Shown: positions 40,911 to 63,965 of the stretch, in pieces | Numbering within the stretch: position 1 is the first letter of the stretch | Layout: each line of letters starts with the position of its first letter | Virus record (IMG/VR): IMGVR_UViG_3300023178_000017 | Location: 1 to 64,000 of that record | Direction: 5' to 3' (one strand) | Length of the DNA stretch: 64,000 nucleotides | Source: a virus | Program-made: the position numbers and the translations under genes | The notes under the pieces: generated by a model | What the model was told of the DNA's origin: nothing | The model's database searches: none | What the model saw: only the letters and a program-made list of their open reading frames with translations

Positions 40911-42041
40911 TTATGACGTAATTGGAGATGCTGGCCACTGTTGTGACAATACACCGTCCCAACGATTCACTGGTGTTCTACCTTGTGTAGCGTAAGTACT
41001 TGGTGATCTATGTTGATAGGTAAACGGAGTTCTACCTTGTCTAGAATATGTACTTGGTGATCTATGTTGATAGGTAAACGGAGTTTGACCTTGTCTTGCA
41101 TATGTCACAGGTTGCCTATGTTGATATGTACTTGGCGATTGTGTTATTCTAGGATCTCTGTAAGTACTTGGTGATCTGTGTTGATATGTGCTAGGTACAC
41201 GATATGCTCTAGGATCTCTGTAAGTACTTGGTGATCTATGGTTATACGTGCTAGGTACTCTATAACTTCTTGGATCACGATATGTAGATGGTGATCTGTG
41301 TTGATATGTGCTAGGTACACGATATGATCTTGGGTCTTGATATGTAGACGGCGATCTATGTTGATATGTGCTAGGTACACGATATGATCTAGGATCACGG
41401 TATGTAAATGGCGATCTATGGTTATATGTAAACGGTGACCTATGTTGATACGTAAACGGTGATCTATGTTGATAAGTCGAAGGTTGTCTAGCGCCTCTAA
41501 TATTAGGTTCTTGTGCTGATACAGGGTGTCTGTAACCTGCTGGTTGTTGTGCTGATCTAATATTAGGTTCTTGTGCTGATACAGGGTGTCTATAACCTGC
41601 TGGTTGTCTAGCATTACCAATTACTGGTTGTTGTGCTGATACAGGTGCTCTATATGCTGCTGGTTGTCTAGCATTTCTAATATTAGGTTCTTGTGCTGAT
41701 CTGATATTAGGTTCTTGACCGCTTCTAATATTAGGTTCTTGTGCTGATCTAATATTAGGTTGTTGACCATTCGCAATATAAGGCGACTGGAAAGTAAACG
41801 GTTGCCTTGCGTTATTAGGTTGTTGAGCATTTGCAATATAAGGCGACTGGAAAGTAAACGGTTGCCTTGCGTTATTAGGTTGTCTAGCATTTGCAATATA
41901 AGGTGACTGATATGTAAATGGATTCTGGAATGTAAATGGATTCTGGAATGTAAATGGATTCTGGAAAGTAAAAGGTGTCTGCACAGGAACAGAAGCCTGT
42001 GTAATACCTTGAGCATTTGCTGGATAAAAACCTGTTGCCAT
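40911..42041 (-). CDS. Pro-delimited repeat protein A (antiparallel partner of 42053..43828)
   Basis: Residues 23-356 are 47 segments of 6, 8 or 10 aa, each starting with Pro. Confidence 0.9.
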   Translation of the reverse strand: MATGFYPANAQGITQASVPVQTPFTFQNPFTFQNPFTFQNPFTYQSPYIANARQPNNARQPFTFQSPYIANAQQPNNARQPFTFQSPYIANGQQPNIRSAQEPNIRSGQEPNIRSAQEPNIRNARQPAAYRAPVSAQQPVIGNARQPAGYRHPVSAQEPNIRSAQQPAGYRHPVSAQEPNIRGARQPSTYQHRSPFTYQHRSPFTYNHRSPFTYRDPRSYRVPSTYQHRSPSTYQDPRSYRVPSTYQHRSPSTYRDPRSYRVPSTYNHRSPSTYRDPRAYRVPSTYQHRSPSTYRDPRITQSPSTYQHRQPVTYARQGQTPFTYQHRSPSTYSRQGRTPFTYQHRSPSTYATQGRTPVNRWDGVLSQQWPASPITS

Positions 42042-43666
42042 TTTACTTTAGATTACTTAGGTGATGGTTTAAAGAAGAAGAAGTTGTGAGCTAATACACC
42101 ATTTGCAAAGAAATTGTGATTGTCGCCAACGTTCTTCAAGTTATACACCTGTTGTGAATCTTTCTCCTCTATTTTAATTATTTCTAGTCCTATTTCTGTA
42201 CCTAGTACAGCATCTGTCATGGTCATCAAATGATCACCGACTGCGATTTCTGAATTTACAAATTCATCTCCACCTTCTTCTTTGTGGAATTCTTTAAATT
42301 TCTCTAAGTTGATAACACCCCATTCACCATTCATTGTTCTAAATGGATGTTCTGAAGTTGTTTCAAGTATTCTACCGTCTGATAAATGTATCTCATGTAT
42401 TGATACTTCTCTTGGTTGCATCAACTCTTCGACTACACCGATCTCTAATTTATTTGTCTCTTCGTTCCAAGTCATTACGTCTTGACCAACTTCTACTGTT
42501 TCAATTGGTACATGACTGCCATCGCCCAACCATATCATTGTGCCGGCAACAAAACATCCTTTGCCACCTCCAGGAATGTTACCAGGTATTGGACCAAACG
42601 GTTGATAGAAGTACACTGCTGGGAAGATAAATGGATATCTTGCTGTTTGTTGTGTAGTACTTGGTTGCCTTGCGTTATTTGGTTGCCTTGCGTTGTTTGG
42701 TTGCCTTGCGTTATTAGGTTGTCTAGCAGCAACTGGTTGTCTTGCCTGATACGTAAACGGCGCACGGAATGTAAATGGAGTCCTTGCGTTATTAGGTTGT
42801 CTTGCCTGATACGTAAACGGCGCACGGAATGTAAATGGAGTCCTTGCGTTATTAGGTTGTCTTGCCTGATACGTAAACGGCGATCTATGGTTATACGTAA
42901 ACGGTGATCTGTGGTTATATGTAAACGGTGATCTGTGGTTATACGTATACGGTGATCTATGTTGATACGTAAATGGCACCCTATATGATCTTGGATCACG
43001 GTATGTAAATGGTGATCTGTACGCATACGTAAACGGTATCTGATATGATCTTGGATCACGGTATGTAAATGGTGATCTATGTTGATACGTAAATGGCACC
43101 CTATATGATCTTGGGTCTCTATATGTAAATGGTGACCTATGTTGATACGTAAACGGTGTTTGTGCGTTTCTGATATTTGGTTCTTGTGCAGACCTAATAT
43201 TTGGTTCTTGACCGCTTCTAATATTAGGCTCTTGAGCAGCAACTGGATGTTGATAAGATGCTGGTGTTTGTCTATTTCTTATAAACGGAGTCTGAGCACT
43301 TACAGGGTGATTATACCCAGCTGGTGTTTGTGCGTTTCTGATAAACGGATTCTGTGCATTAACAGGATGTTGATAAGAAGCAGGTTGTTGTGCGTTTCTG
43401 ATAAACGGATTCTGTGCATTTACTGGATGTCTATAGAATGCTGGTGTTTGTCTATTTCTTATAAACGGATTCTGTGCATTAACAGGATGTCTATATGATA
43501 CAGAGTTTTGTGCATTCGCAATATAAGGCGATTGAGCATTCGCAATATAAGGATACGGCTGTTGTGCATCTCTTATAAATGGATTCTGTCTATTAGCAAT
43601 ATAAGGATACGGCTGTTGTGCATCTCTTATAAATGGATTCTGTCTATTAGCAATATAAGGATATGG
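40974..43666 (-). repeat. Coding tandem repeats (18/24/54/60 bp periods) of proteins A and B
   Basis: Near-exact 60 bp duplications at about 41770-41900 and 42735-42880; 54 bp duplications at about 40990-41090 and 43540-43665. Confidence 0.9.
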
Positions 43667-43828
43667 TTGTTGTGTAGGTTGTTGACCTGATGCGTTATTC
43701 CACCCACTAGGAGTTTTAATGTAAATTTGATCTACATCTTTCCAAGTGTTTGAAGCAGTTTTAACCCATGCACCTTGGGTTGAATTCCAACCTGAGGGGG
43801 TTTTTACTTTCTGTGAGCCTGTCGCCAT
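42053..43828 (-). CDS. Pro-delimited repeat protein B with N-terminal docking-like motif and C-terminal Hint domain
   Basis: N-terminal WVKT..WKDVDQIYIKT..GW; residues 55-388 form 47 segments; Hint domain from Cys425. Confidence 0.9.
   Translation of the reverse strand: MATGSQKVKTPSGWNSTQGAWVKTASNTWKDVDQIYIKTPSGWNNASGQQPTQQPYPYIANRQNPFIRDAQQPYPYIANRQNPFIRDAQQPYPYIANAQSPYIANAQNSVSYRHPVNAQNPFIRNRQTPAFYRHPVNAQNPFIRNAQQPASYQHPVNAQNPFIRNAQTPAGYNHPVSAQTPFIRNRQTPASYQHPVAAQEPNIRSGQEPNIRSAQEPNIRNAQTPFTYQHRSPFTYRDPRSYRVPFTYQHRSPFTYRDPRSYQIPFTYAYRSPFTYRDPRSYRVPFTYQHRSPYTYNHRSPFTYNHRSPFTYNHRSPFTYQARQPNNARTPFTFRAPFTYQARQPNNARTPFTFRAPFTYQARQPVAARQPNNARQPNNARQPNNARQPSTTQQTARYPFIFPAVYFYQPFGPIPGNIPGGGKGCFVAGTMIWLGDGSHVPIETVEVGQDVMTWNEETNKLEIGVVEELMQPREVSIHEIHLSDGRILETTSEHPFRTMNGEWGVINLEKFKEFHKEEGGDEFVNSEIAVGDHLMTMTDAVLGTEIGLEIIKIEEKDSQQVYNLKNVGDNHNFFANGVLAHNFFFFKPSPK
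42083..42556 (-). other. Hint (bacterial intein-like) autoprocessing domain
   Basis: CFVAGT.I start, TTSEHPF block B, VYNL...HNFFANGVLAHN end; +1 residue is Phe; no endonuclease domain. Confidence 0.9.
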
Positions 43829-43861
43829 TTAATCCTTTCTCGCTTTTTATCTATTTATCAA

Positions 43862-46159
43862 TTATGAATAAAGAATCCATAGATCACCAACTGCTCCGTC
43901 ACCTGAAGTAGGTGCAGAAGTTGATTGATATATGTTTCTCGCAACACCACCACTATTTGAAGCGTATGATGTTGAAATTTGTGATGCTCTAAAGTTTGCG
44001 TCTGTTAATGTTAACGAACCTGTAGAAGCACCAGTTGCAGTTGTTGTAGCAACTACAAACTCATCAGCACTTTCGTCCCAACCCATAAATGCGTTGTCGC
44101 CAGTTGAACCTCTTTCTAACACAAGACCAAGGTCATTTGAGTTAGCACCTGTGTTACCAGACCCTAATTCAATCAATGCATCACTGATTGTTGTATTTGT
44201 AGAATCTACAGTTGATGTAGTACCATTAACTGTTAGGTTACCAGATAATGTTAAGTTACCAAATTGTACGTTACTTGTTGTAGCAACTGCCTGACCAATA
44301 CTTATTTCACCTGAACTAATTGAGACACCAGTTCCTGCACTAATATGACTTCTAACTTCTGAAGCGCTTGGGCCAGTATATGTGATTACACCAGTAGATG
44401 AATTGTATGCTAAACTTCCATCACCACCTGAATCAGTAACAGAGATTGAACCTCTTGCATCTGAATCAGCATATTGTGTAATTGTTGTTGCAAGTGTTAA
44501 GGTACCATTTACATCATCGTATGTTGATGTGATGCCTGTACCTGCTGTTACTAAAGCATTTACTCTGTCATCAACTCTTTCGTCTGTGAAGTATAAGTTT
44601 GATGAACCTTCTGTTAACGAATCTGTATCTGGTAATAATGCATTAACTCTAGCATCTGCTCTAGCGTTTGTAAAGTAAAGGTTTGAACCTTCTGAAATAT
44701 GAGCAGTTGTTGAAGGTATTGTAATAGCACCTGTACTTGAATCATATGCACCTGCACCAGAGTTTGTACTTAGAGATGCTCTTGCTCTAGCATCTGTATA
44801 GAATAAGTTTGTTGAACCTTCTGTAATGTCATCTGAATCACCACTTAGTTCACTTAATGCATCTGCTGTATCTACTTGTGCATCAACATAAGTTTTGACT
44901 GCTAACTGAGAAGGTACTAAAGTATCTGAAGCACTACCAAAATTAACATCTGTATCGATTGCATTTTGAACTCTAGCGTCTGCTCTTGCATTTGTAAAGT
45001 ATAAGTTTGTAGAGCCTTCTGTTATTTCATCTGTATTGTCTTTACTTGCGACTTGTGAATCTACATATGCTTTAACTGATTGTTGAGAAGGTATTCTTGT
45101 TTCACTATTAGACACCATATTATCTTCATCGATAAGAGCTGCTGTGATTCTAGCATCTGCTCTAGCGTCAGTGAAATATAAGTTTGAACCTTCTGCTAAA
45201 TCACCAGTGTCATGGTTAGCAATACTAGTAACTGTACCAGTTACGTTACCAGTTAAGTTTCCTTCGAATGTTCCTGCAACAAAAGTTTCTGAACCGACTG
45301 TCCATTTATCGTTGGTCTCATCCCATAAGAATGTTTTTGCAGTTGAACTACCTCTAGTTACACTCAAACCAGCATCTTCTGTTGGTGAACCTGAAGTAAA
45401 GTTACTGTTTAATGCGATTGTGTTGTCTGCAAGGTTAATTGTCTCTGAGTTTACAGTTGTTGTTGTACCTGAAACTGTTAGTGAACCTGAGATTGTAACA
45501 TCATCGTTAAGTGAAATAACACCATTTCCGTTACCACTCAATACTAAGTTAGTATCAGCTGATCTGGACACGATTTGATCAACTGCAATATTGTTACTAA
45601 ATGTGATGTTGTTTCCTGCACTGTTGGTAATATTGTTACCGTCTTCGATTTGAACTGGACCTTTAAGTGCAATAACACCTGATCCTGTTGCATCTAACTC
45701 TAAATCACCAGAACCACTTGTCTGTATAGACATGTTTTGGTTAGAGTCAGCACTAAAGACGATTGTACCTGAGTCATCTGAAATAACCTGTTGTCCGTTA
45801 ACATATAAAGAACCAGGTCCAACGTATACGTCTTTCCATGTTCTACTTGATGAACCTAAGTCGTATGTGTTATCTGCGCTTGGTATGATGTTACCTGCAA
45901 ATGTACCACCACCTAAGTATGATAATACATCTGAGTCGCCGTATTGGGCTGCACCTGCGATTGTTAGTGTGTTAGCAGAATCATCGTATGTTAATGTGAT
46001 GCCTGTACCTGCTGTTAAAAGTTGAGCGACTCTATCGTCTACTGACTCATCTAATGCTGATGCTGAAATTGAACCAACGTATGATCCAGAAGAGCTAATA
46101 ACCTCTGTTCCACCGATTGACAGGCCGTTTTTAATATTAAAATTCTTTTCCCCTGCCAT
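43862..46159 (-). CDS. Tail fibre-like virion protein
   Basis: Five D.(L/I).EGS.NL(Y/F).T..R repeats, GNLTVNGTT motifs, C-terminal SAPTSGDGAVGDLW. Confidence 0.8.
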   Translation of the reverse strand: MAGEKNFNIKNGLSIGGTEVISSSGSYVGSISASALDESVDDRVAQLLTAGTGITLTYDDSANTLTIAGAAQYGDSDVLSYLGGGTFAGNIIPSADNTYDLGSSSRTWKDVYVGPGSLYVNGQQVISDDSGTIVFSADSNQNMSIQTSGSGDLELDATGSGVIALKGPVQIEDGNNITNSAGNNITFSNNIAVDQIVSRSADTNLVLSGNGNGVISLNDDVTISGSLTVSGTTTTVNSETINLADNTIALNSNFTSGSPTEDAGLSVTRGSSTAKTFLWDETNDKWTVGSETFVAGTFEGNLTGNVTGTVTSIANHDTGDLAEGSNLYFTDARADARITAALIDEDNMVSNSETRIPSQQSVKAYVDSQVASKDNTDEITEGSTNLYFTNARADARVQNAIDTDVNFGSASDTLVPSQLAVKTYVDAQVDTADALSELSGDSDDITEGSTNLFYTDARARASLSTNSGAGAYDSSTGAITIPSTTAHISEGSNLYFTNARADARVNALLPDTDSLTEGSSNLYFTDERVDDRVNALVTAGTGITSTYDDVNGTLTLATTITQYADSDARGSISVTDSGGDGSLAYNSSTGVITYTGPSASEVRSHISAGTGVSISSGEISIGQAVATTSNVQFGNLTLSGNLTVNGTTSTVDSTNTTISDALIELGSGNTGANSNDLGLVLERGSTGDNAFMGWDESADEFVVATTTATGASTGSLTLTDANFRASQISTSYASNSGGVARNIYQSTSAPTSGDGAVGDLWILYS

Positions 46160-46419
46160 TAGATAGTACCTCCGTCAACTTGCGGTAATGAAAACTCACC
46201 CGTTGATGAGTTATAAGATAAATTCGTTTCTCCAGATGCTAATGAAATAGCACCTCTTGCTTTTGCGTTAGTAAAATATTGATTCGTTGCACCTTCTGTG
46301 ATGTCATCTGAGTCTAGTGCGGATACTGATCCAGCGGTAATTTTACCAGCACTAGTTATGACCTCTGTAGAACCGATGTTTAATCCGTATTCTATAACAA
46401 AATTATTTTGTGTTGCCAT
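46159..46419 (-). CDS. Small virion fibre-associated protein
   Basis: N-terminus paralogous to 43862..46159 (NF.I..GL.IG.TEVI.S.G); one EG.TN.YFT repeat; ends DGGTI. Confidence 0.7.
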   Translation of the reverse strand: MATQNNFVIEYGLNIGSTEVITSAGKITAGSVSALDSDDITEGATNQYFTNAKARGAISLASGETNLSYNSSTGEFSLPQVDGGTI

Positions 46420-46507
46420 GGTTAGTGTGTCCTAATTGAGTGTATACAGTATTATTTAGTAGAGATTACTCTTCAAAAAGGTGGTTTAAACAAAATTTAA
46501 ACAAAAA

Positions 46508-47248
46508 TCATACTTTAATTAATTGACGTGACCATTTGAATACAGTCGAGTTTGCAGAAGCAGGTGTAATCTTTAAAACTACATTACCACTTTCAACTGC
46601 AACTGATACTGAATACAACGAACTATTTGTAACTATCTCAGCGTATTGTGTAAAGTAAGCAGTTGAACCGTCATGAATTACAACAACTTCAGATGTGTGA
46701 TAGTTTGTACCCTCTGTTGCTTGTAAAATATACTTAGCACTTCGATAATTTGATAAAGAAAACGAATCTAAGTCTGTTTCCGATGTTGTAGTGGTTGTTG
46801 TACCTGTATTACTATCAACAACCAAACTATCGATTGTTAATGTGTCTGAAGCAGTGATAGTAGTGCATGTTAAATCACCAACTTCTAAAGCTGCTTTAGC
46901 GTAACCTGTGCCTGAAGTGTTAACTGTTGTAGTAGGTTCTACTTCTAAACCGTCAAATAATTTCCATGTAGAATCACTAGCATCTCTAAAAAGACCTGTG
47001 AACTCATTGCCGCTGTCTGATAAACCATCATCGTAGTTACCATATAACCCTATGTCAACTGTATCTGAACTCGTGTTTGAGTTCGCAAGTTCGATCATTG
47101 AGTCTATAACAGACGTGGTTGTACTGTTAACGGTAGTTTGTGTACCATTAACTGTTAAATTGCCTGTGATTGTCGCATCGCCATCGACCAACAGGTCTTG
47201 ACCTGTTTCTAGTCCTATGTCTGCATAAAATTTTGATTTTGTTGCCAT
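46508..47248 (-). CDS. Virion structural protein (fibre segment plus shared C-terminal beta domain)
   Basis: [15 protein letters not shown]; C-terminal LDSF...YRSAKY...YHTSEV..IHDGS...TQY. Confidence 0.7.
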   Translation of the reverse strand: MATKSKFYADIGLETGQDLLVDGDATITGNLTVNGTQTTVNSTTTSVIDSMIELANSNTSSDTVDIGLYGNYDDGLSDSGNEFTGLFRDASDSTWKLFDGLEVEPTTTVNTSGTGYAKAALEVGDLTCTTITASDTLTIDSLVVDSNTGTTTTTTSETDLDSFSLSNYRSAKYILQATEGTNYHTSEVVVIHDGSTAYFTQYAEIVTNSSLYSVSVAVESGNVVLKITPASANSTVFKWSRQLIKV

Positions 47249-47297
47249 AATAATCTCAAAAATATATTCTCAGTACTATTTATGACTTTTTGGAAGT

Positions 47298-47324
47298 AAA
47301 AGAAAGGGGATCATGTGATCCCCT
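47298..47324 (-). terminator. Intrinsic terminator
   Basis: AGGGGATCA-tg-TGATCCCCT with a U-rich tail on the minus strand. Confidence 0.7.
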
Positions 47325-47344
47325 CTCAAGAAAGTTGCTTAGTT

Positions 47345-47755
47345 CTAAGCGCCTACTAAAGTCCTGTGGAATTTAATAGTTGTACTGTTTGCTGAGGCAG
47401 GTGTAATTCTGAGTCTCAAGTCGGAACCATTAATGTCAGCATCGAATGATGCAACACTAGTGTTTTTCAATGTACCGTATTGAGTCATGGTTACTGCGCT
47501 TCCGTCATGTACTAATACTATCTCAGTTGAATGATAGTTAGAACCTTCTGACATTGCAATAACATATCTAGCAGCTCTAAAGTCAGCATGGGCAAAAGTG
47601 TCCAAGTCGACTTGAGATGTAGATGTTGTTGTTAATGCTGTAGACGTTCTATGTTTAGTATCCAACTCTTTAGAAGTAGTGATGACATCATTAGATGAAT
47701 CGTAAGACAATACTCTAATTAACTCAGCGACTTTAAATGCATTTGTTTTAGCCAT
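47345..47755 (-). CDS. Virion structural protein (shared beta domain)
   Basis: LDTF...FRAARY...YHSTEIVLVHDGS...TQYG...ITPASANST. Confidence 0.7.
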   Translation of the reverse strand: MAKTNAFKVAELIRVLSYDSSNDVITTSKELDTKHRTSTALTTTSTSQVDLDTFAHADFRAARYVIAMSEGSNYHSTEIVLVHDGSAVTMTQYGTLKNTSVASFDADINGSDLRLRITPASANSTTIKFHRTLVGA

Positions 47756-47765
47756 TGTCTACTCC

Positions 47766-48593
47766 TTATGATAACCTAATTTGGAAGGTTTTGAATGTTG
47801 TATTAGTATTTGCAGGAGTCACAAGCAATCTCATGTTTCCTGAATTTACATCTGAACTTAACGTGAATAATGAAGACGCTGAATATACATCGCCATATTG
47901 AACGAAGTAAGAATTCGAGCCATCATTAATCAATAATACTTCTGCTGAATGTGTGCCAGCTGATGCATGTGATGCCATGATCACATACTTAACTGCCTTG
48001 TTGGCAATTGCGTTTGCTGATAACACCTGATCTGCTGTAGTAGCAGTAGCTGATAATGTAGTGAAGTAACCTTGAACAAGGTTAGCTGCACTAGTAATAG
48101 CGACTACTTCAACAACATCACCATTTAAAGCATTTTCCGTTAATGTGATAGTTGATGAGCTGGTAGCAGTATAGTCTGCACCACCACCTACTAACTTAAC
48201 ACCGTTAATGTACACTTGTTCATAACCTGAGGTATATGAAAGTGAATTACCATTATCATCGTTACCTGTAATTGAAGTACCAGTTGATGATATAGTGTAA
48301 GTGAATGTTTGTACACCCGAAGATGGTTGGTCTGACCAACTCAAAGTTCCTGAACCATCAGTTTTTAAAATCTGATTTGAGGAACCATCACTTGTAGGAA
48401 AAGAGAAAGCATCATTAACAGTTAAAGAAGCTGGATTCGATCCAACTTCTACAACAGCAGCTGAGCCGTCATTCTTCTCGGTATAAAATCTACCATGATA
48501 AGTATTGACAGCTAATTCACCTAGTGATAGATCACCTATACCAGGCAAAGCGCTTTGTGTAGAACTCCTTTTAAATTGTATTAATGTTGCCAT
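47766..48593 (-). CDS. Virion fibre protein with Mtd-N-like N-terminus and shared beta domain
   Basis: IQFKRS...LSLGELAVN; DGSSNQILKTDGSGTLSW; C-terminal domain paralogous to both neighbours. Confidence 0.7.
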   Translation of the reverse strand: MATLIQFKRSSTQSALPGIGDLSLGELAVNTYHGRFYTEKNDGSAAVVEVGSNPASLTVNDAFSFPTSDGSSNQILKTDGSGTLSWSDQPSSGVQTFTYTISSTGTSITGNDDNGNSLSYTSGYEQVYINGVKLVGGGADYTATSSSTITLTENALNGDVVEVVAITSAANLVQGYFTTLSATATTADQVLSANAIANKAVKYVIMASHASAGTHSAEVLLINDGSNSYFVQYGDVYSASSLFTLSSDVNSGNMRLLVTPANTNTTFKTFQIRLS

Positions 48594-48621
48594 TGTTCTC
48601 TCCTATAGATTAGATGTTAAA

Positions 48622-50190
48622 TTAGAATGTACCACCGTCTATAGCAGTAACAGATACAGCACCTGAAGAGACTGTAAAGTTACTTGAGTCGAATGAAGCA
48701 ATACCTTTAGCAGATGTTGTAGCATCATCGATTGCAACATCACCAGATGTTACAGTAAAGTATGAAGCTGAGAAAGATGCGATACCTTTATTAGCGTCTG
48801 TTGCATCTTCACCTGCTATTGTTATACTACCGTCAGCGTTTGTTACATCGATACCTTCGCCAGCTGAAAGAGCAGCAAGTTCCATATCTCCGTTAGAACC
48901 ATTACCAATTAGTAATTGTCCTGCTGTAGGAGCTGCACCGTCTATAGAAGTAATTGAACCTGAAAGTGCAAGTCCTGAAACTTCTAAGTTACCGAATACT
49001 GCGTTACCTACTGAACCAGAGAATACTGAAGATGTGTCTGTAGCGTCTTGGATAAATTTAAATTTACCGTCAGAATCATCCATACCAAAGAAACCAATTT
49101 TAGCAGTAGAACCATTGTGCCACTTAAATTTGATACCTCTGTCTAGGTTGTCATCTGAAGCGTCATCACCGATTTCAAACACTGGATCTGCAACTGAAGT
49201 AGTTGTAGAGTTTACAGTAGTTGTAGTACCGTTAACAGTCAAGTTACCTGAAACTGTTAAGTTACCTGAAGCGGCAATATTTGTTGATGTAATGTCATCT
49301 GAAGTTAGTGTACCATCTACTTGTACGTTGTTAAACTGTACGTTTGATGATGTGCCAACATCCTGACCGATTGCTAATGTTACGCCGTTGCCTGAAGCAG
49401 TTGATGAAACACCAGTACCACCTAAAACAGAAAGTACTTCTGAGTCAAGGTCGATAGCAATAGATGTAGTACCATCTGAGATGTCTAAATCTTGTGCTGT
49501 TACTTGTGAATCAACATATGCTTTAACAGATTGCTGTGTAGGAACTTTAACGTCTGAATCAGAAGCCATGTTGTCTTCGTCAACTAAGAAGTCAATGTTT
49601 CCTACTTGAACTGCGTTAGCTTGAATTGCAGTAACACCTGAAGCGTTAACTGTTATGTCACCTGAAAGTGAAACGTTATCAAATGAATCTGTACCATCAT
49701 AGATCAAAATTTGACCTGATGAAGGAGCAGAAATATCTGAGTCTGATGCACCAGCAAGTGTTGAAGTTGTAGATACGAAAGAAAGGTTTCCTGAAGCATC
49801 TGTTGCAAGAACCTGGTTAGCAGAACCATCAGCTGATGGTAATGTAAAGGTTACTGAACTTGCAACTGAATCAGGAGCTTTCAGACCAACGAAGTTTGAA
49901 CCGTTGTCTGAATCTTCTCTAAGTTGTAATGAAGCACCAGAAGTTGCACCGTTACCAACAATAAAGTTTGAAGGCGTTGGAGCATCACCGTCTACGATAT
50001 CGGTATAATATTTACCGCCGATTTCGTGAATAACAGCTGATGAGCCTGAGTCTACTGACTCGATATACAATTTAGCAGAAGCACCGTCATTCGATCTATC
50101 CTGTACATACGCTAATTCGCCTTCGCTCAAGTCTGAGACTGTTGGCGCACTCGCTCCTGTACTTCTTTTAATTTGAATAACTGTTGCCAT
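48622..50190 (-). CDS. Tail fibre protein with Mtd-N-like N-terminus
   Basis: [10 protein letters not shown]...L.EGELA; [15 protein letters not shown]; KGIASF repeats; ends IDGGTF. Confidence 0.8.
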
Positions 50191-50329
50191 TTTTTTCTCC
50201 TAAAAAATGAATTGGGTTTAATATAAAATTTGCAAATTTCTAGTTCACATATCCCTAGAAGATCATTATCTATCTCGTCCTCTCACAATGAGGGTCGTGT
50301 CTCACTGAATGACACCTTGATTGTAATAG

Positions 50330-50337
50330 TATTTATA
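50330..50337 (-). promoter_or_regulatory. T4 late promoter TATAAATA (representative copy)
   Basis: Exact minus-strand TATAAATA also occurs at 22262, 26174, 28811, 31399, 36437, 50927 and 63985, each just upstream of a late-region gene. Confidence 0.8.
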
Positions 50338-50340
50338 AGA

Positions 50341-50583
50341 CTAAAATGTTCCGCCGTCTATAACAGTGGTAGTAACCCACTTATCAGACGATGCGTTATA
50401 TGCCAATAGGCCGTTATCTGTTTCACTAGCATCTACATCTGATAGTTCTTGTATAGATTTAGCTGATAGATTGACATTAGTAGATGAGTTACCAATTGCA
50501 ACTTGTTTTACTCTAAAGTTACCTTGACCTTGCACCTTTCCTGAGATGCCTGCTACTCTTCCTACTACACCTTTAATTGCCAT
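50341..50583 (-). CDS. Small virion protein
   Basis: LSDVD...GLLAYNASSDKW motif; ends IDGGTF. Confidence 0.7.
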   Translation of the reverse strand: MAIKGVVGRVAGISGKVQGQGNFRVKQVAIGNSSTNVNLSAKSIQELSDVDASETDNGLLAYNASSDKWVTTTVIDGGTF

Positions 50584-50585
50584 AC

Positions 50586-50921
50586 TTAACTCCTAGTTAC
50601 ACCTGGCGTTATAATAGCTTGTCCTTCGACAACTCTACTAGTTTGACCACCAGAACTTGTTATGTTTAAGTCATACAGATATCTGCCTGGATTTAGAGCA
50701 GTTGTTTGTGTATCTGTTAAAGACAAAGTGACCTGACCTGAAGCCTCTGAAATAGATGTAGAAAATGTTGCACTTACTGAAGAAGACGTATATGTTTTTC
50801 TCATTTGTGCAGCTGCTGAATAACCTGATAGGTCTAAAACTGAACCATCAGAGTTTGTTACATCTACTGTAATGCTGAAGTCTGAACCTTGATCTATGTA
50901 AAGATTTGCTATAATTGCCAT
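50586..50921 (-). CDS. BppU-N-like virion adaptor protein
   Basis: NLYIDQGSDF...DLSGYSAAAQMRK...LSLTDTQT..L.PGRYLYD...RVVEG...TPGVT. Confidence 0.7.
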   Translation of the reverse strand: MAIIANLYIDQGSDFSITVDVTNSDGSVLDLSGYSAAAQMRKTYTSSSVSATFSTSISEASGQVTLSLTDTQTTALNPGRYLYDLNITSSGGQTSRVVEGQAIITPGVTRS

Positions 50922-50938
50922 ATTACTATTTATACGGA

Positions 50939-51868
50939 CTAATTATTTAATTGGGAATATGGGACTTTTGTATGTATTTTTTCTACTGTAGTTGGATCAG
51001 TTTTTACGTATGCTTCTTCTAATTGTTTTACAGTACCGTCTGCATCTTTAACATAAACTTGTTTAACTTCTGCTACAGGACCTATAGGTCTTCTGCTAGA
51101 ATATGTTATCTGATATGTAAATGGTGATCTATGTTGATATGTAGTTTGTACAACAATGTTACCACTTCTTGTATTCTGAGCATTTGCAATATATGGTGAA
51201 GGTTGAGAAGCAGAAACCCTATATGTATCTGGCGATCTATGTTGATACGTAAATGGTATTCTATGTTGATAGAACGATGGTGATCTATGTTGATACGTAA
51301 ATGGTGTTCTACCTGTTGTAGGATATGTTATAGGTTGCCTATGTTGATATGTTGTTGGTGTTCGCCCTGTTGCCTGATATGTTGAAGGCTGTCTTGCATC
51401 TCTAATAAATGGATTCTGTCTATCAACAGGATGTCTGTAAGTTGTAGGTGAAGGTTTATTTCTTATAAACGGATTCTGTTTATTTACAGGATGTCTGTAA
51501 TTAGCTGATATACGATAGCTACCAATTATCGGATTCTGTCTGTTAACAGGATGTTGATAAGCTGCTGGTTGACGTTGATTTGCAACATAAGGTGATGGTC
51601 TATTTCTAATAAACGGATTCTGTTGTTGTGCAATGTATGGTGATTGAAATGGACTTCTTGCGATAGCAGCTGTCTGTGCGTTTGCTATGTAAGGAATAGG
51701 CACTCTAGTATTAGCAACTGTCTGAGCGTTTGCTGATGCACGGGCATTAGCAATGTACGGCACAGGCGTAGTACCGTTAGTAGAATTTTGTCTATTAGCA
51801 ATATAAGGATACGGCTGTTGTCCTGGCGTTGCGTTTGAATTGCTATATGTTACTTGTACGGTTGGCAT
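50939..51868 (-). CDS. Repeat protein C (antiparallel partner of 51870..53534) with C-terminal docking-like motif
   Basis: Residues 19-260 form 33 segments; C-terminal VKQVYVK..GTVKQL..AYVKT resembles the N-terminus of protein B. Confidence 0.88.
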   Translation of the reverse strand: MPTVQVTYSNSNATPGQQPYPYIANRQNSTNGTTPVPYIANARASANAQTVANTRVPIPYIANAQTAAIARSPFQSPYIAQQQNPFIRNRPSPYVANQRQPAAYQHPVNRQNPIIGSYRISANYRHPVNKQNPFIRNKPSPTTYRHPVDRQNPFIRDARQPSTYQATGRTPTTYQHRQPITYPTTGRTPFTYQHRSPSFYQHRIPFTYQHRSPDTYRVSASQPSPYIANAQNTRSGNIVVQTTYQHRSPFTYQITYSSRRPIGPVAEVKQVYVKDADGTVKQLEEAYVKTDPTTVEKIHTKVPYSQLNN

Positions 51869-51869
51869 T

Positions 51870-53534
51870 TTATACTATTATTGGCCCCCCACTACCTGCA
51901 TTATATGCTGCTCTTAAACTTATGGGGCTTGATGACCAAGAACCGTTGAAGTATGAAGCTATATGAAAATATGTATAATAAGTGTCTGTGCCTTTTGTTG
52001 CTTTTATTCCAAAATAAACATCATTTGATGTTAATTGTACTGGATTACCTGTGCTGTCGTATACACCCCACTTAAAAAATCTAGCAGTGCGAGTACCATT
52101 AAATCCACCCCTTGAAGTTGAACCAGACCAGAAATTATAATATTGGCCTCTGGTTTTTCCACAAACATGTGGATAAAATCCATAACTGTTTCCACCTCCT
52201 CCGTAACAATTTGTTTGAGCTTGAGTACCTGATACCGATTCACCACTTGCATAATATGCTACATCAAAATTCCAAGTATCGTCAATTATACCATTAGCAT
52301 TCAAATCGGTAATAGGCATATAAAATCTATAATAAAAACTCCAACCACTATTACTAAAAGAGTTATAATGACCATACGATATTCTAAAAGCCCCTAAAGG
52401 ATTTGTCTGAACAGTATTATTGTTAGCTGCAAAATCAAATTGCATATAACAACCACATTCGGTATGATTAAAACCAGGATTACCAGTTGCTAATTGAAGA
52501 GTATTCCAACTTGGTACACTAAACATAGAAGCAGTTCCTGAAGGTGGGTCAGAATTTATATAATTCGTACTACCACCAAAAGGATATACATCCCAAACAG
52601 GATTACTTATACCTGAGCCCCAAGGTTGAGGGTTCGGTTGATTAGCTAAAGTTGCACTTGTTGCTGTTGAACTTCCAGACAGTGCTGATTCGCCTACAAT
52701 ACCTTCATATGATGTTGGTACCTGAGCAGTCGATGGTGACTGATATATGTAAGGCGTTTGGCCTTGTGCTGAATAAGTCGAAGGCGATTGATAAATGTAA
52801 GGCGATGGTCTTTGCGCCTGATACGTAAACGGATTTTGATAAATCGATGGCACCCTATATGTTTGAGGACTTCTTTGTTGTGCTTGATAAGTTGAAGGCA
52901 CTCTATAAGGTACAGGTTGTTGATTTGACTCCTGTGCGTTTATATTTGCTGGTGACTGGTGTTGATACGTAGTAGGTTGTTGTGCCTGATATGTTACAGG
53001 ATTTCTGTAACTTCTTGGGTCACGATATGTACTAGGTGATCTATAAGCATAACTTACAGGATTTCTGTAACTTCTTGGGTCACGATATGTACTAGGTGAT
53101 TGATGTTGATACGCAACTATAACCTGTGCATTTCTTGGGTCTCTATAAGTTGAAGGACTTTGATGTTGATACGTAAACGGTGTTTGTGCGTTTGCAGGAT
53201 ACGGATACGGATTCTGTCTATTAGCAATATAAGGTGATTGTGCATCGGCCTGATAAGTATACGTTTGTTGTGCGTTTCTTATAAAAGGATTTTGTCTCGA
53301 TCTTATGTTAGGTTGCTGTGCGTTTCTTATAAAAGGATTTTGCCTATTAACAGGATTTCGATAAATTATTGGTTGTTGATTCTGATAAGTCGAAGGAGAC
53401 TGAAACGTATAAGGAACAATCGATGGTTGTTGTCTTATATTTGGTTCTTGAATGTTAGCAGGTTGCCTTGCTATGTAAGGTTGCTGAAAACTACCGCCAT
53501 TTAAATTGTGTTTAATGTAAATTTTATCTGCCAT
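51870..53534 (-). CDS. Repeat protein D with C-terminal globular (putative receptor-binding) domain
   Basis: Residues 19-260 form 33 segments; about 270 aa aromatic/Gly/Asn-rich non-repetitive C-terminus. Confidence 0.88.
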   Translation of the reverse strand: MADKIYIKHNLNGGSFQQPYIARQPANIQEPNIRQQPSIVPYTFQSPSTYQNQQPIIYRNPVNRQNPFIRNAQQPNIRSRQNPFIRNAQQTYTYQADAQSPYIANRQNPYPYPANAQTPFTYQHQSPSTYRDPRNAQVIVAYQHQSPSTYRDPRSYRNPVSYAYRSPSTYRDPRSYRNPVTYQAQQPTTYQHQSPANINAQESNQQPVPYRVPSTYQAQQRSPQTYRVPSIYQNPFTYQAQRPSPYIYQSPSTYSAQGQTPYIYQSPSTAQVPTSYEGIVGESALSGSSTATSATLANQPNPQPWGSGISNPVWDVYPFGGSTNYINSDPPSGTASMFSVPSWNTLQLATGNPGFNHTECGCYMQFDFAANNNTVQTNPLGAFRISYGHYNSFSNSGWSFYYRFYMPITDLNANGIIDDTWNFDVAYYASGESVSGTQAQTNCYGGGGNSYGFYPHVCGKTRGQYYNFWSGSTSRGGFNGTRTARFFKWGVYDSTGNPVQLTSNDVYFGIKATKGTDTYYTYFHIASYFNGSWSSSPISLRAAYNAGSGGPIIV

Positions 53535-53535
53535 A

Positions 53536-55443
53536 TCATATCACAAACCATAAATGTCCAACTTCTTTACCTGTACCACTTGGTGTACCAGATAGTGAAG
53601 AAGCACTAACAACTTCATAATCTAACTCAACATCATCGCCGTCTAATTTAACACCGTTTGATGTGTTCACTGATAAAGTAGCAACACCATCTAATGAATC
53701 ACCTGAAGAACCTGCGTTATAAGATTTCGCAAGACCTGAACCAGCAGATATGACACTATTTACTCTATCATCTGTAAAGTATTTATTAGTTTGTTCTGAT
53801 ATAGAATCGGTACCTGTTGAGTTATCTGCAACTTGTAAATCACCATTAGAATCAAATACTAGTATTTGACCAGCAGATGCACTAGATGTACTACCTACAT
53901 CTGTTAAATCAGATATAGCAGAGTTCATTGTTGTGTTTATTGATACATTGCCTTTAGCAGTCTGTGTGACTGAACCTGTAACTGCACCAGTCAATGAAAA
54001 GTCTGAATTATCTAAAACTAAATCTAAAGTATTATCTGAGTCATCATAGGTAACTGAAAGACCTGATTCAGTGTTTGAACTAATCATTGTACCGACTGTG
54101 TCAGCAATTCTTTCTACAATGTCATCAACTACAAAACTAGAACCGTTGTACTTAAGAACACTATTAGTATTTGCGCCACTTGTATTTACATCTGAAAGAT
54201 CATCGATACTAGCAGCTGCGATTCTAGCGTCTGCTCTACCGTCTGTATAATAAAGATTAGAACTTCCTTCTGTTAAATCATCAGTGTCATGGTTTGATAA
54301 ACTTGAAACTGTACCTGTAAGATGTCCTGTTGATACATTTAAAACTGTTGTTGAACCGTCTGCTGTAATTGTAGATAATCTTGCAGTAGCATCGGTACCA
54401 TTTGTACCGTTATCGATGATTGTTTGACCACCACTTGATAGAACATCACCTTTTAGATTACCATTAAAAGTAGTTGCAGTCATGTCTGTTGCATGAATGT
54501 TCTGCCATTTTAGTATACTACTTCCAAGTTCGTGTGTGTTGTTAGCACTTGGTAAAACATCTGAGTCTATTGAACCTGTGAATGATATTGTATCACTAGA
54601 TGCGTTACCTAAATCGATGTTACAATTCAGTGATGATAATCCATTAACTGTTAAAGCGCCAGTAGTTGTAACTGTTGAGGCATTTAAATCACCGCCTGTA
54701 AGTGTTGCAGTTCCATCACTCAATGTACCCACGTTGACTGTTGCGCTAAAGTTTGCATTTACACCACCAGTAATACTACCTGAGTTGATACTCATGGTGC
54801 TATCAGTAATTGTAGGCGCAGTCATTACACCGCCTGTTGTGATTGTTATATCATCTTCTGCAAATGTTTTACCTGCAAGTTGAATGTTGAAACCAGTCTC
54901 TAATTCTGTTGTGTTATTTGTGTTTGAAGCATTAAGAATAACACCATTTGAGTTGTTGTTAAAGATTGAGTTTGTATCTGATAACTGCCAGTATGAAGCA
55001 CCTGTACTTGCTAATGCAGTACCTAAGTATGAACCTGTGTAAGAATATAGAACGAATCTATCGCCATTTGATAAACCAGAACCGTATGTAGCACCTTGTA
55101 AGTTAATTCTTCCATAACTACCATCTGAATTTTGGCTAGTGATCTGATAGTCTATACCTTCTATTAAGTGAGAACCGTTGACAAAGACCTGAATTCGGTC
55201 TTGTACAAATTTCATCACATTGTTAAACTGATCAGCGCCTTCGAAATGCGTTTCACCACCAGTTGCAATATACACATACTCTTGGAAGTAAAATGCTTTA
55301 TCTTCTACACTATTAACAGCGTCAACTAAAGTTGCTTGAGCAGTAGTTCTAAGACCACTAATATCACCCACGTCATTAGCCAACACATTATATTGTTGTC
55401 TAAAATTTTCTATAGTACTGAAACTGTCTACTGTTTTAGCCAT
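53536..55443 (-). CDS. Tail fibre-like virion protein
   Basis: N-terminal T.ENFRQ.YN...DVGD...L.T.A...LVDAVN; TDDLTEGSSNLYYTD repeat; C-terminal GTPSGTGKEVGHLW. Confidence 0.75.
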   Translation of the reverse strand: MAKTVDSFSTIENFRQQYNVLANDVGDISGLRTTAQATLVDAVNSVEDKAFYFQEYVYIATGGETHFEGADQFNNVMKFVQDRIQVFVNGSHLIEGIDYQITSQNSDGSYGRINLQGATYGSGLSNGDRFVLYSYTGSYLGTALASTGASYWQLSDTNSIFNNNSNGVILNASNTNNTTELETGFNIQLAGKTFAEDDITITTGGVMTAPTITDSTMSINSGSITGGVNANFSATVNVGTLSDGTATLTGGDLNASTVTTTGALTVNGLSSLNCNIDLGNASSDTISFTGSIDSDVLPSANNTHELGSSILKWQNIHATDMTATTFNGNLKGDVLSSGGQTIIDNGTNGTDATARLSTITADGSTTVLNVSTGHLTGTVSSLSNHDTDDLTEGSSNLYYTDGRADARIAAASIDDLSDVNTSGANTNSVLKYNGSSFVVDDIVERIADTVGTMISSNTESGLSVTYDDSDNTLDLVLDNSDFSLTGAVTGSVTQTAKGNVSINTTMNSAISDLTDVGSTSSASAGQILVFDSNGDLQVADNSTGTDSISEQTNKYFTDDRVNSVISAGSGLAKSYNAGSSGDSLDGVATLSVNTSNGVKLDGDDVELDYEVVSASSLSGTPSGTGKEVGHLWFVI

Positions 55444-62441: not shown

Positions 62442-63965
62442 TTACATTTCAATGATCAGTTTGATATCTTCAATCTGATCGGCTGCCCTTGACACAGGAC
62501 CTCTATTCTCAACATAGAGAATATCACCAGTAAATCTTCTCATCTCTGGATGATCTGCATCTACACCAGCGGCATTCACTGAAGTTACAATTGAACCAGA
62601 AGCATTGATGTAAATATCATCATTGTTTTGGAACAATATAAACTCACCACCGCCATTTGCTATCGGTTGATAACTTATAATATTACCTGACTTAGATACA
62701 ACTCTACCAACTGCTGTTGATGCGTTGTTTGTTGTACTATCTGTTATAATATCATCTACTGATATACCTGAAGCACTACCAACTGTAATTCTATTTGTTA
62801 CAGTCATTGTTGATAGTGTTGAAATAGCACCGTCTGAGTCTTGTAAAGGATTTTTAATTAGACCAATTTGTCTAAAATCGTTGTCTGTTGGGAAATCACC
62901 TGAGCCTTCGCCAAACTCTAATCTTGAGTTTACTACTACGAAGTTACCGCCTAGTTCGTCAACTGGATTTGCACCATGACCACCAATTGGTGACATTACA
63001 ACGTGAACTTCTGCACCTGAACCTGATGCTATAGGTGTAGCAGCTGAGTCATCTACGATGTTTGCATCGATAGTATCTAATGATGCACGTCTGTAACCTG
63101 AACCGTATGATGATGAATCTTTAAAATATGCATCTACTAATTCACCTGAGTCAAATGATAATGTTACAACAGCACCTGAACCGTCACCTTGGACTGGAAT
63201 GTCACATGTGAATGTACTTGAACCTCCACTTGTCGCAGTATAACCTGAACCAGCAGATTTAACAATATATCTAAACACTGCACCGTCAACCGCATCGTTT
63301 TCTACATCCCATTGAGCAGAACCGTCATCGGTTGCTGATGAACCGAATCCACCGTTTGTACCGATACCAGCAATTCCTGATTTAGCACCGAGAGTCTTTA
63401 CAGGAATAAAATCGTTAGTTACAAATTTAATAACATCTGAGGCAGTAATTTGATACATAAATTTCCACATATATCCGTCTGAGGTAGTTTCAGGATCAGT
63501 GGTACTAACTGAAGTTGGTTGGTCTGTTGAATTAACAGGATTTACACCGCTATAAGGTGTTTTTAAACACTTATAGACTTTATATTCGTCTGTAATTATA
63601 TAACCCTTACCATCAAACCAGTTCACTATTGAACCGTCTGAACTTGAAGGTACTGCTGTACCTACACCGTAATCGTCTCTATACTCGTCATATACTGTAC
63701 CTGATGTCCAGTCATATCTTACAAGTCCGTGTGATACATCACCTGAAGAAACTTGTTTAAGAGCAATCATATTTGATTGTGCTCCTAATATTTCCTCTAC
63801 TGAATTGTTTGGACTTGGTGGGTTATTATCGTCAATTGATGAATCATCAGCATCTACCCATGCGTGTGATCTACCAATGAATATGTAATTTTTAGAATCG
63901 CTGAAATCTGCAACAAATTCTTTTGCATTGTGCGTTCTAAAATTCTCTAAAATTATTGCTGCCAT
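62442..63965 (-). CDS. gp8: Baseplate wedge subunit
   Basis: YIFIGRSHAW, RYDWTSGTVYD.Y, YKVYKCL, DGYMWKFMY, GGHG.NPV.ELG, NDFRQIGL, EDIKLIIEM. Confidence 0.9.
   Translation of the reverse strand: MAAIILENFRTHNAKEFVADFSDSKNYIFIGRSHAWVDADDSSIDDNNPPSPNNSVEEILGAQSNMIALKQVSSGDVSHGLVRYDWTSGTVYDEYRDDYGVGTAVPSSSDGSIVNWFDGKGYIITDEYKVYKCLKTPYSGVNPVNSTDQPTSVSTTDPETTSDGYMWKFMYQITASDVIKFVTNDFIPVKTLGAKSGIAGIGTNGGFGSSATDDGSAQWDVENDAVDGAVFRYIVKSAGSGYTATSGGSSTFTCDIPVQGDGSGAVVTLSFDSGELVDAYFKDSSSYGSGYRRASLDTIDANIVDDSAATPIASGSGAEVHVVMSPIGGHGANPVDELGGNFVVVNSRLEFGEGSGDFPTDNDFRQIGLIKNPLQDSDGAISTLSTMTVTNRITVGSASGISVDDIITDSTTNNASTAVGRVVSKSGNIISYQPIANGGGEFILFQNNDDIYINASGSIVTSVNAAGVDADHPEMRRFTGDILYVENRGPVSRAADQIEDIKLIIEM

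Follow-up and report, generated by a model that had tools for sequence, protein, structure and literature searches.

What could make two adjacent genes of a virus encode repeats that read as mirror images of each other? The question is raised by a stretch of 64,000 nucleotides (hereafter the window), part of the 105-kb IMG/VR virus record IMGVR_UViG_3300023178_000017, which carries two such gene pairs, A with B and C with D. On sequence grounds its source is a T4-like marine myophage, and the major capsid protein is 64-66% identical to its homologues in Methylophilales phage Melnitz and Pelagibacter phage HTVC008M. A first-pass annotation, made from the letters of the window alone, had described compensating residues across the facing repeats and had read them as a sign of direct cross-strand contact and of a transferable code that could be useful for protein design. 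Our analysis suggests, with a probability that we put at roughly 0.7, that A/B and C/D are obligate antiparallel partner chains which form the beta-ribbon shaft of a tail-fibre-like appendage.

When the four proteins are cut at every proline they fall into units of 6, 8, 10 or 12 residues. In the register that sets proline on proline, residue i of A lies opposite residue 412-i of B (sum 412) and residue i of C opposite residue 280-i of D (sum 280). Read in this way, A23-356 and B388-55 (334 amino acids, aa, each) match antiparallel without a gap, every unit facing one of the same length and of complementary type, and C from about 85 to 260 mirrors D194-19 over about 175 residues, also without a gap. 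The complementary types are xIR with xxYxH, PNNARQ with PFTFxx, PxxYxH-PVxxQx with PxTYRD-PRxYRx, and PYPYIANxQx with PxTYxxQGxT. Prolines of A stand opposite prolines of B in 47 of 52 cases, compared with 18.6 matches on average and never more than 27 in 200 shuffles of the unit order, 29 in the parallel A/B register and 30-31 when a chain is paired with itself. For the cross pairs A-D and C-B the count is no higher than 19. Units with the same peptide sequence are written with different synonymous codons, including TCG and AGC for Ser and AGA and CGT for Arg, which indicates that selection acts on the peptides.

Every sequence detail reported by the first-pass annotation recurs in these registers. 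The sole IG unit of A (PVIGNARQ) faces the sole AY unit of B (PFTYAYRS) at sum 412, and the IG unit of C (PIIGSYRI) faces the AY unit of D (PVSYAYRS) at sum 280. All 11 DPR junctions (five in A, three in B and three in D) face xPV, as HPV in ten cases and APV in one; the eight EPN junctions face SPF (seven) or SPY (one); the six [N/T]PF-IR junctions all face SPS; and PxTYQHRQ faces PYIANxQN in both pairs (PSTYQHRQ/PYIANAQN and PTTYQHRQ/PYIANRQN). By a rough count, the double IG/AY coincidence amounts in the window alone to only about 1 in 28, and the strength of this pairing comes from the family data.

That family is large. Gene A has 418 homologues at E<=1e-3, all of them unnamed proteins of marine metagenomes, and a scan of IMG/VR gave 77 loci, nearly all consisting of a longer 'up' gene (B and D in the window) followed by a 'down' gene (A and C), often with a second gene pair about 8 kb upstream. 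In 52 distinct pairs there is one gapless antiparallel register in which the prolines of the shorter chain almost all meet a proline of its longer partner (such as 70/73, 71/74, 61/65 and 41/43), far above the matching seen with unit shuffles, the parallel register, self-pairing or non-cognate partners, and the mirror register is kept despite widely differing architectures between loci. For residue-level counts we used 24 non-redundant homologous IMG/VR gene pairs with 1050 aligned Pro-Pro columns. In these pairs the repeat lengths of the two partners, each measured separately, correlate with r = 0.97 over a range of 216-546 aa. The same facing unit types recur: xIR opposite xxY[QNDS]H 289 times, the PYPYIAN 10-mers opposite xTYxxQGxT 103 times and PNNA opposite xTF 33 times. 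Between the close relatives L035 and L049, both genes of the pair differ by an insertion of 18 aa. In one gene the insertion consists of a 10-mer QG and an 8-mer YNH unit and in the other of an 8-mer IR and a 10-mer PYPYIA unit, that is, of complementary types in mirrored order. As no mutational process connects the two genes, these matched changes are most simply put down to selection for a partner that fits. Fused single-chain forms of more than 700 aa were not found, which is weak evidence; the strands always come as two genes. Megablast and tblastn searches of public phage collections, in which records close to the window may be lacking, found no real relative, a phmmer search of the repeat proteins against PDB chains gave no match at E<=1, and the repeat parts of A-D have no match in Pfam or PHROGs except a sub-threshold one to Cementoin, which is considered below.

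The family data also reveal how finely the facing units are matched. Counting positions from the proline, Arg at position 3 of an I-type unit faces, at position 5 of the opposite Y-type unit, His in 289 of 311 cases, Tyr in 20 and Phe in two. Gly at the same position faces Phe in nine of 14 cases, Tyr in three, Ile and Val in one each, and His in none (Fisher p = 3e-15 for 0/14 versus 289/311). The 14 IG units come from nine loci of the A/B type, where they lie at differing places and on either chain, usually facing 'TYSF', and are estimated to represent 6-8 independent sites. As far as sequence comparison can tell, the IG/AY pairing of the window is one case of a general rule in which IG faces [S,A,G][F,Y], replacing the [Q/N]H of the facing unit; the C/D pair of the window obeys this rule too. 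The compensation in size that had been proposed, Gly opposite Tyr, stands in part: in these 14 units IG never faces His and meets an aromatic residue, Ile or Val instead, but the rule is not strict in either direction, as discussed below. Compensation in charge, Asp opposite His, is not general. In the relatives DPR faces xPV in 20 of 20 cases, of which ten are HPV, while Leu, Asn or Ala replaces His in the other ten (LPV 5, NPV 4, APV 1). Conversely, HPV faces DPR in 10 of 13 cases, and NPV is mostly found opposite NPV (82).

The tail of an I-type unit likewise predicts position 1 of the unit that it faces. The tails DARQ, SAQQ, NAQQ and NARQ face Phe (80/81), SQQE faces Leu (23/23), NAQT and NRQT face Ser (25/26) and SIQE faces Tyr (7/10). 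In general xA[QR]Q goes with Phe1, xQQE with Leu1 and xAQT or xRQT with Ser1, all at about 95-100%, and this rule generalises the pairing of E-P-N with S-P-F and of T-P-F with S-P-S that had been picked out in the window. In a leave-one-locus-out analysis the pair table was learned from the other loci and the held-out locus was scored against 1000 within-locus permutations; cognate pairing beat the permutations in 14 of 20 loci (z 1.8-7.9). When each unit was offered either its true partner or the partner of its neighbour, the true partner was preferred in 143 of 152 informative cases. This indicates that the code has single-unit resolution, beyond the context of the block. A transferable pairing code at the level of residues, finer than unit type, is well supported by these comparisons.

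The spacing of the prolines bears on geometry. Consecutive prolines are separated by an even number of residues in 2507 of 2511 cases in the 24 pairs and in 154 of 154 in the four proteins of the window, where only about half of the spacings are multiples of 3. Such two-residue periodicity fits beta strands and not collagen-like or polyproline II (PPII) fibres, and with a proline at intervals of 6-12 residues alpha-helical coiled coils are excluded. The even positions that follow a proline are nearly invariant (Ile2, Thr2, Gln6, Arg6), and odd positions vary and covary. Mutual information peaks in odd-odd cells on the antidiagonal, at (-3,+1) with 1.24 bits, (-1,-1) with 1.19 bits and (-1,+1) with 1.02 bits, and is 0.56 bits at (+1,+1). 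Coevolution across homologues, which had been named as a check on the window's pattern, is thus present, as an antidiagonal band of odd positions that is strong at offsets 0 and -2 and weak at +2. In a twisted antiparallel beta pair a residue has one directly opposite and one diagonal neighbour on the same face, and the two offsets are what such a pair would give. Mutual information pooled by offset was set aside for fixing the register because the phase of the repeat alone lifts all offsets. A signal that does not depend on proline agrees: Arg-Arg oppositions occur once in 8350 facing pairs at the Pro-Pro register, compared with about 84 expected from 10% Arg, and 342 times at offset +1; offset -2 is as good as the Pro-Pro register. 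Since Gly/Tyr5 needs offset 0 and Asp/His offset -2, one of the two would be a diagonal contact, and the idea that both lie directly opposite each other cannot hold in one register. Unit lengths follow one another irregularly and find their match only in the partner chain, which speaks against a solenoid of stacked turns and favours a ribbon of strand on strand. Fully extended, the 334 residue pairs of A/B would span about 110 nm. Complex prediction for A95-356 with B55-316 returned a score of 0.00 and an uncertain fold and is no evidence either way, and the ESM Atlas gives an extended model of low confidence (pLDDT 0.56), the nearest clusters of which are viral hypothetical or unrelated low-complexity proteins.

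The location of the genes is suggestive of a fibre. Both pairs lie on the minus strand inside a fibre module between a VrlC-like gene of 2255 aa and DNA-metabolism genes. Their neighbours match tail-fibre, structural and fibre-assembly PHROG families, and a baseplate wedge gene is near (Table 1). For pelagimyophages, the region that adjoins the VrlC-like giant gene has been described as a host recognition cluster with fibre proteins that could not be identified (PMC7029224). The gaps within the pairs, 11 nt from B to A and 1 nt from D to C, fit coupled synthesis of partner chains. In the up proteins the N-terminal 54 or so residues are conserved and face a conserved C-terminal tail of the down protein, and the C-terminal end belongs to one of three classes: a Hint domain behind a poly-Gly linker, a domain of some 145 aa, or poly-Gly with only a short '..EP' tail. 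The down proteins have no domain besides the repeats. A conserved base, a swappable tip, the gene neighbourhood and the assembly-like gene together fit a host-recognition fibre. Location in a tail-fibre/baseplate module and a conserved N-terminus joined to a variable C-terminal tip are also what is looked for in the tail-fibre class.

Table 1. Positions of the two gene pairs, their parts and nearby genes in the window
Feature	Position	Strand	Remarks
Gene A	40911..42041	-	376 aa, 'down' strand of pair 1; nearly all repeats, with about 20 aa at each end
Repeat region of A	40974..41975	-	residues 23-356, 334 aa, faces B388-55
PVIGNARQ, sole IG unit of A	41604..41627	-	A residues 139-146
Gene B	42053..43828	-	591 aa, 'up' strand of pair 1; first 54 aa conserved, then repeats, a linker of poly-Gly and a putative Hint domain
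Repeat region of B	42665..43666	-	residues 55-388, 334 aa
PFTYAYRS, sole AY unit of B	43013..43036	-	B residues 265-272, faces PVIGNARQ of A
Putative Hint (hedgehog/intein-like) domain of B	42083..42559	-	from sub-cutoff Pfam PF14890 match, motifs and recurrence in relatives
Fibre genes nearby	43862-46159, 48622-50190, 53536-55443	-	match structural family phrog_697
Small gene directly downstream of C	50586..50921	-	111 aa; phrog_3304 'L-shaped tail fiber protein assembly', E 4e-22
Gene C	50939..51868	-	309 aa, 'down' strand of pair 2; repeat region about 51089-51814
PIIGSYRI, IG unit of C	51509..51532	-	C residues 113-120
Gene D	51870..53534	-	554 aa, 'up' strand of pair 2; repeat region about 52719-53480
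C-terminal orphan domain of D	51873-52667	-	265 aa
PVSYAYRS, AY unit of D	53037..53060	-	D residues 159-166, faces PIIGSYRI of C
gp6-like baseplate wedge gene	62442-63965		

The Hint assignment in B is based on a PF14890 match of 33.3 bits (cutoff 35.8); five other Hint families also match below their cutoffs, and the relatives score similarly. Its motifs are G424|C425-F, as in hedgehog, TSEH, and a terminal ..AHN followed by Phe. In intein chemistry a Phe at the +1 position rules out canonical splicing, which on the sequence appears to be excluded for B, and self-cleavage or transfer is possible. Relatives that have no Hint domain stop right behind the poly-Gly in a short conserved '..EP' tail, so that self-cleavage by a Hint domain would leave a like end. 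Poly-Gly and Hint with G|CF and a non-nucleophilic +1 residue also occur in the loci L029, L031, L032, L037, L041, L048, L050 and L062. In the putative duplex the Gly end of the up protein would adjoin the N-terminus of its partner, which often reads M-[P/A]-I-G. The C-terminal domain of D found only itself among 1.84 billion representative proteins. AlphaFold2 reached a pLDDT of 36 for this domain from a single sequence and of 46 for the tip family of about 145 aa from seven sequences, values too low to base a fold search on. In locus L054 a tip domain of about 143 aa is 90% identical on both pairs (L054:752-1180 and L054:9258-9686), which suggests an exchange of tips between two kinds of pair.

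The neighbouring fibre genes that match phrog_697 have another repeat in common, ..EGSxNLYFTxARADARV.., together with Thr/Ser/Gly-rich tracts. Lys, Leu, Met, Trp and Cys are all missing from the repeat regions of A and B (668 residues together), in which Arg makes up 12%, and the net charges are +32 (A) and +33 (B). In the family as a whole Arg makes up 10%, Lys 0.24% and acidic residues less than 3%, in a window genome of 36% G+C, which should favour Lys. Contig pieces identical to the window occur in several public salt-marsh DNA runs, and a 2024 marine metagenome run contains a variant strain with in-frame 6- and 3-base insertions at 42557-42569, in the Hint part of B, and many point differences. 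Two metatranscriptome libraries contain identical pieces of both genes. Contigs from the public runs break at the repeats and DNA carry-over is possible, so that we do not count these finds as proof of transcription or of the assembly.

The mirror rule, its conservation, the co-varying lengths, the matched insertions, the residue covariation and the gene context are observed; that the chains pair physically, adopt beta geometry, belong to the virion and combine in a set stoichiometry is inferred from them. On this basis we propose that the repeat region of A would lie antiparallel to that of B from end to end, over 334 residue pairs, and the repeat region of C likewise to that of D, each proline-delimited segment being matched with a partner segment of equal length and complementary type. 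The most likely geometry would be a two-stranded antiparallel beta ribbon, possibly bundled further, with the prolines of both chains at matching positions along one edge. The odd positions after the proline would form one face and hold the variable pairs that give specificity: Arg3 with His5, Gly3 with [Phe,Tyr]5, Ala5 or Gln7 with Phe1, Gln5 with Leu1, Thr7 with Ser1 and Asn1 with Ser7. The order of the 6-, 8-, 10- and 12-residue units may act as a barcode that fixes the register and keeps pair 1 apart from pair 2. Together the paired chains would make up the shaft of a tail-fibre-like appendage encoded in a host-recognition cluster, and the longer chain would supply a conserved N-terminal anchor and a swappable C-terminal end that carries a Hint domain, a tip domain or nothing.

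Several points weigh against this proposal or against a strict code. In a C/D-type pair of locus L048 an IG unit, PSIGNTQT, faces the YQH unit PGTYQHRT, and Tyr5 tolerates Arg opposite it in the 20 cases counted above. The covariation leaves the directly opposite register at either offset 0 or offset -2. Direct cross-strand contact is a strong inference from comparative data. Both chains are strongly cationic, so that pairing must overcome the repulsion of like charges or needs counter-ions. Raw counts overstate the number of independent events because related loci share ancestry. In locus L018 the up protein has a stretch of 24 aa (three units) that is unmatched in the down protein (L018:2326-5612), either a real bulge or a repeat collapsed in metagenome assembly. 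Locus L073 (5099-8432) uses another repeat dialect, for example PFTYPFTTNATGNTRQ 16-mers, with many IG units, and can be aligned only with gaps. These two exceptions may be assembly errors or real. Finally, at a length of about 110 nm a lone ribbon of two strands would be remarkably thin among phage fibres, and the assembly may be a bundle.

The last point leads to the strongest alternative, in which A and B pair in the same way and the functional unit is a bundle, for example three A-B pairs forming a six-stranded antiparallel needle, like that of T4 gp37 but very long and encoded by two genes. Trimers account for nearly all phage fibres known, and covariation at offsets 0 and -2 could mean two neighbours as readily as one opposite and one diagonal residue. 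The metal-binding HxH motif of that needle is absent from the repeat regions of A-D and occurs once in 24 pairs, the phmmer search found no relative among solved structures, and the variable unit lengths are matched only pairwise. We regard a bundle as rather unlikely, though a serious competitor. An improbable reading is that the down chain (A or C) is no part of the virion and serves as a template or as a chaperone of assembly, keeping the long chain extended and in register while it folds and then leaving. Down proteins are indeed repeats only, phage fibres often need dedicated chaperones, and a gene resembling a fibre-assembly gene adjoins C. The complementarity of residues over the full length and the matched length changes far exceed what known fibre chaperones need, and a long chain left without its partner would be an unpaired Pro-rich strand.

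We consider it slightly less probable still that the residue covariation reflects shared descent and block context, with selection for pairing acting on unit lengths or on nothing and with side chains that do not touch. The loci are related, the IG sites of L035, L049, L051 and L054 are homologous, and unit sub-types do come in blocks. Against this, swapping neighbours within a block favours the true partner in nearly all informative cases, as given above, the pairs of IG with an aromatic residue occur at different places and on either chain, and the code is kept across widely differing architectures. In the window itself, units in like context (between 12-mers) differ as predicted, ..QQ and ..RQ facing F and ..QT facing S. 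An origin of the mirror as a by-product of DNA (inverted duplication read on the other strand, which would give mirrored order, or antisense coding) or as low-complexity chance is rejected as hardly credible, given that both genes of a pair are on the same strand, minus-strand blastn among the four genes finds only chance matches of 10-14 nt and no inverted DNA similarity, the unit types are complementary and not identical, and shuffles never come near the observed score.

Taking the antiparallel partner chains as the preferred reading, we see an even chance that they constitute a natural protein 'duplex', in which recognition over hundreds of antiparallel residues would be written in an alphabet of units and a residue code, with the order of the units as the address. 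The code would consist of Arg with His, Gly with an aromatic residue, and small with large residues at the junctions. In forms with a Hint domain, the N-terminus of the partner would lie close by and might resolve a thioester formed where the long chain ends, so that the duplex may close covalently. It would amount to a beta counterpart of the coiled-coil code that could be transferred to design, evolved in the fibres of marine phages. To our knowledge, there is no natural precedent for long-range heterospecific pairing of beta strands programmed by sequence, and protein designers find such pairing hard to achieve. If the proposal is true, hundreds of natural variants that obey a readable code would offer rules for building two-chain beta fibres that are long and specific in register: a barcode of unit lengths, prolines at the edge against aggregation, and Arg/aromatic and small/large pairs. 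The usefulness for protein design that the first-pass annotation had envisaged may then follow. The duplex would also be a new kind of fibre shaft in abundant T4-like marine phages, and would explain why these unannotated genes always come paired.

A search of the literature by motif and topic found no description of these repeat pairs or of their pairing code, and we have compared them with known repeats and fibres. Cementoin (PF10511, with GQDPVK repeats that contain Gln and Lys) was rejected; it reaches 24.1 bits with B, below its cutoff, and Lys is nearly absent from the family. In the up protein of L018 (2326-4083), residues 161-177 score 47.5 bits against Cementoin (cutoff 27) over 17 residues of PVxGQx-like units only, probably a chance likeness of short repeats, as Lys is absent. 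A triple-stranded beta-helix of the T4 gp5C type has an 8-residue repeat of constant length so that its turns stack, and was rejected because unit lengths here are irregular (6, 8, 10, 12) and matched only with the mirrored partner. A collagen-like or PPII fibre was rejected as well, there being no G..G..G runs and all proline spacings (6, 8, 10, 12) being even. Heterodimeric coiled coils resemble the duplex proposed for the phage pairs in that a simple positional code selects the partner and the register of two repeat chains. They are built from alpha-helical heptads with a charge code at the e and g positions, and the phage pairs, with helices excluded by their prolines, differ in alphabet and geometry.

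Three systems come closer. In the stalk of streptococcal antigen I/II, one chain folds back so that an Ala-rich alpha helix is wound with a Pro-rich PPII helix. The proposed duplex would likewise be a thin stalk in which complementary repeat regions run antiparallel side by side over a great length; the phage system, in contrast, has two chains, and its two-residue periodicity fits beta strands and neither PPII nor alpha helices. The tip of the T4 long tail fibre is formed by the gp37 needle, a six-stranded antiparallel beta needle (PMC7291167). It shares with the structure proposed for the phage pairs a long, thin antiparallel beta architecture in a myophage fibre, with up and down strands abreast, and His-rich repeats. 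Up and down strands of gp37 come from the same chain, three copies of which form a homotrimer; iron is bound by the HxH motifs, and the needle measures about 15 nm. The phage pairs differ in being encoded by two genes, in their proline punctuation and in a length of about 110 nm if fully extended. A needle of the gp37 type was rejected for these pairs on account of the near absence of HxH, the division of the strands between two genes and the negative phmmer search.

The tandem beta-zipper is formed by the fibronectin-binding proteins FnBPA and SfbI on the F1 modules of fibronectin (PMC3105298, PMC7480013). As is proposed for the phage pairs, an array of repeats binds a second array antiparallel, segment by segment, by strand pairing and with the order of motifs reversed. 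There, domains that are already folded gain a further strand from a disordered peptide over a few tens of residues, in an encounter of host and pathogen. The phage partners, unlike these, are repeat strands of the same kind that would pair over 216-546 residues, encoded by adjoining genes, with a residue code and co-varying lengths. None of the three, the beta-zipper, gp37 or antigen I/II, is a two-gene, full-length, coded duplex such as the one that we propose for these phages.

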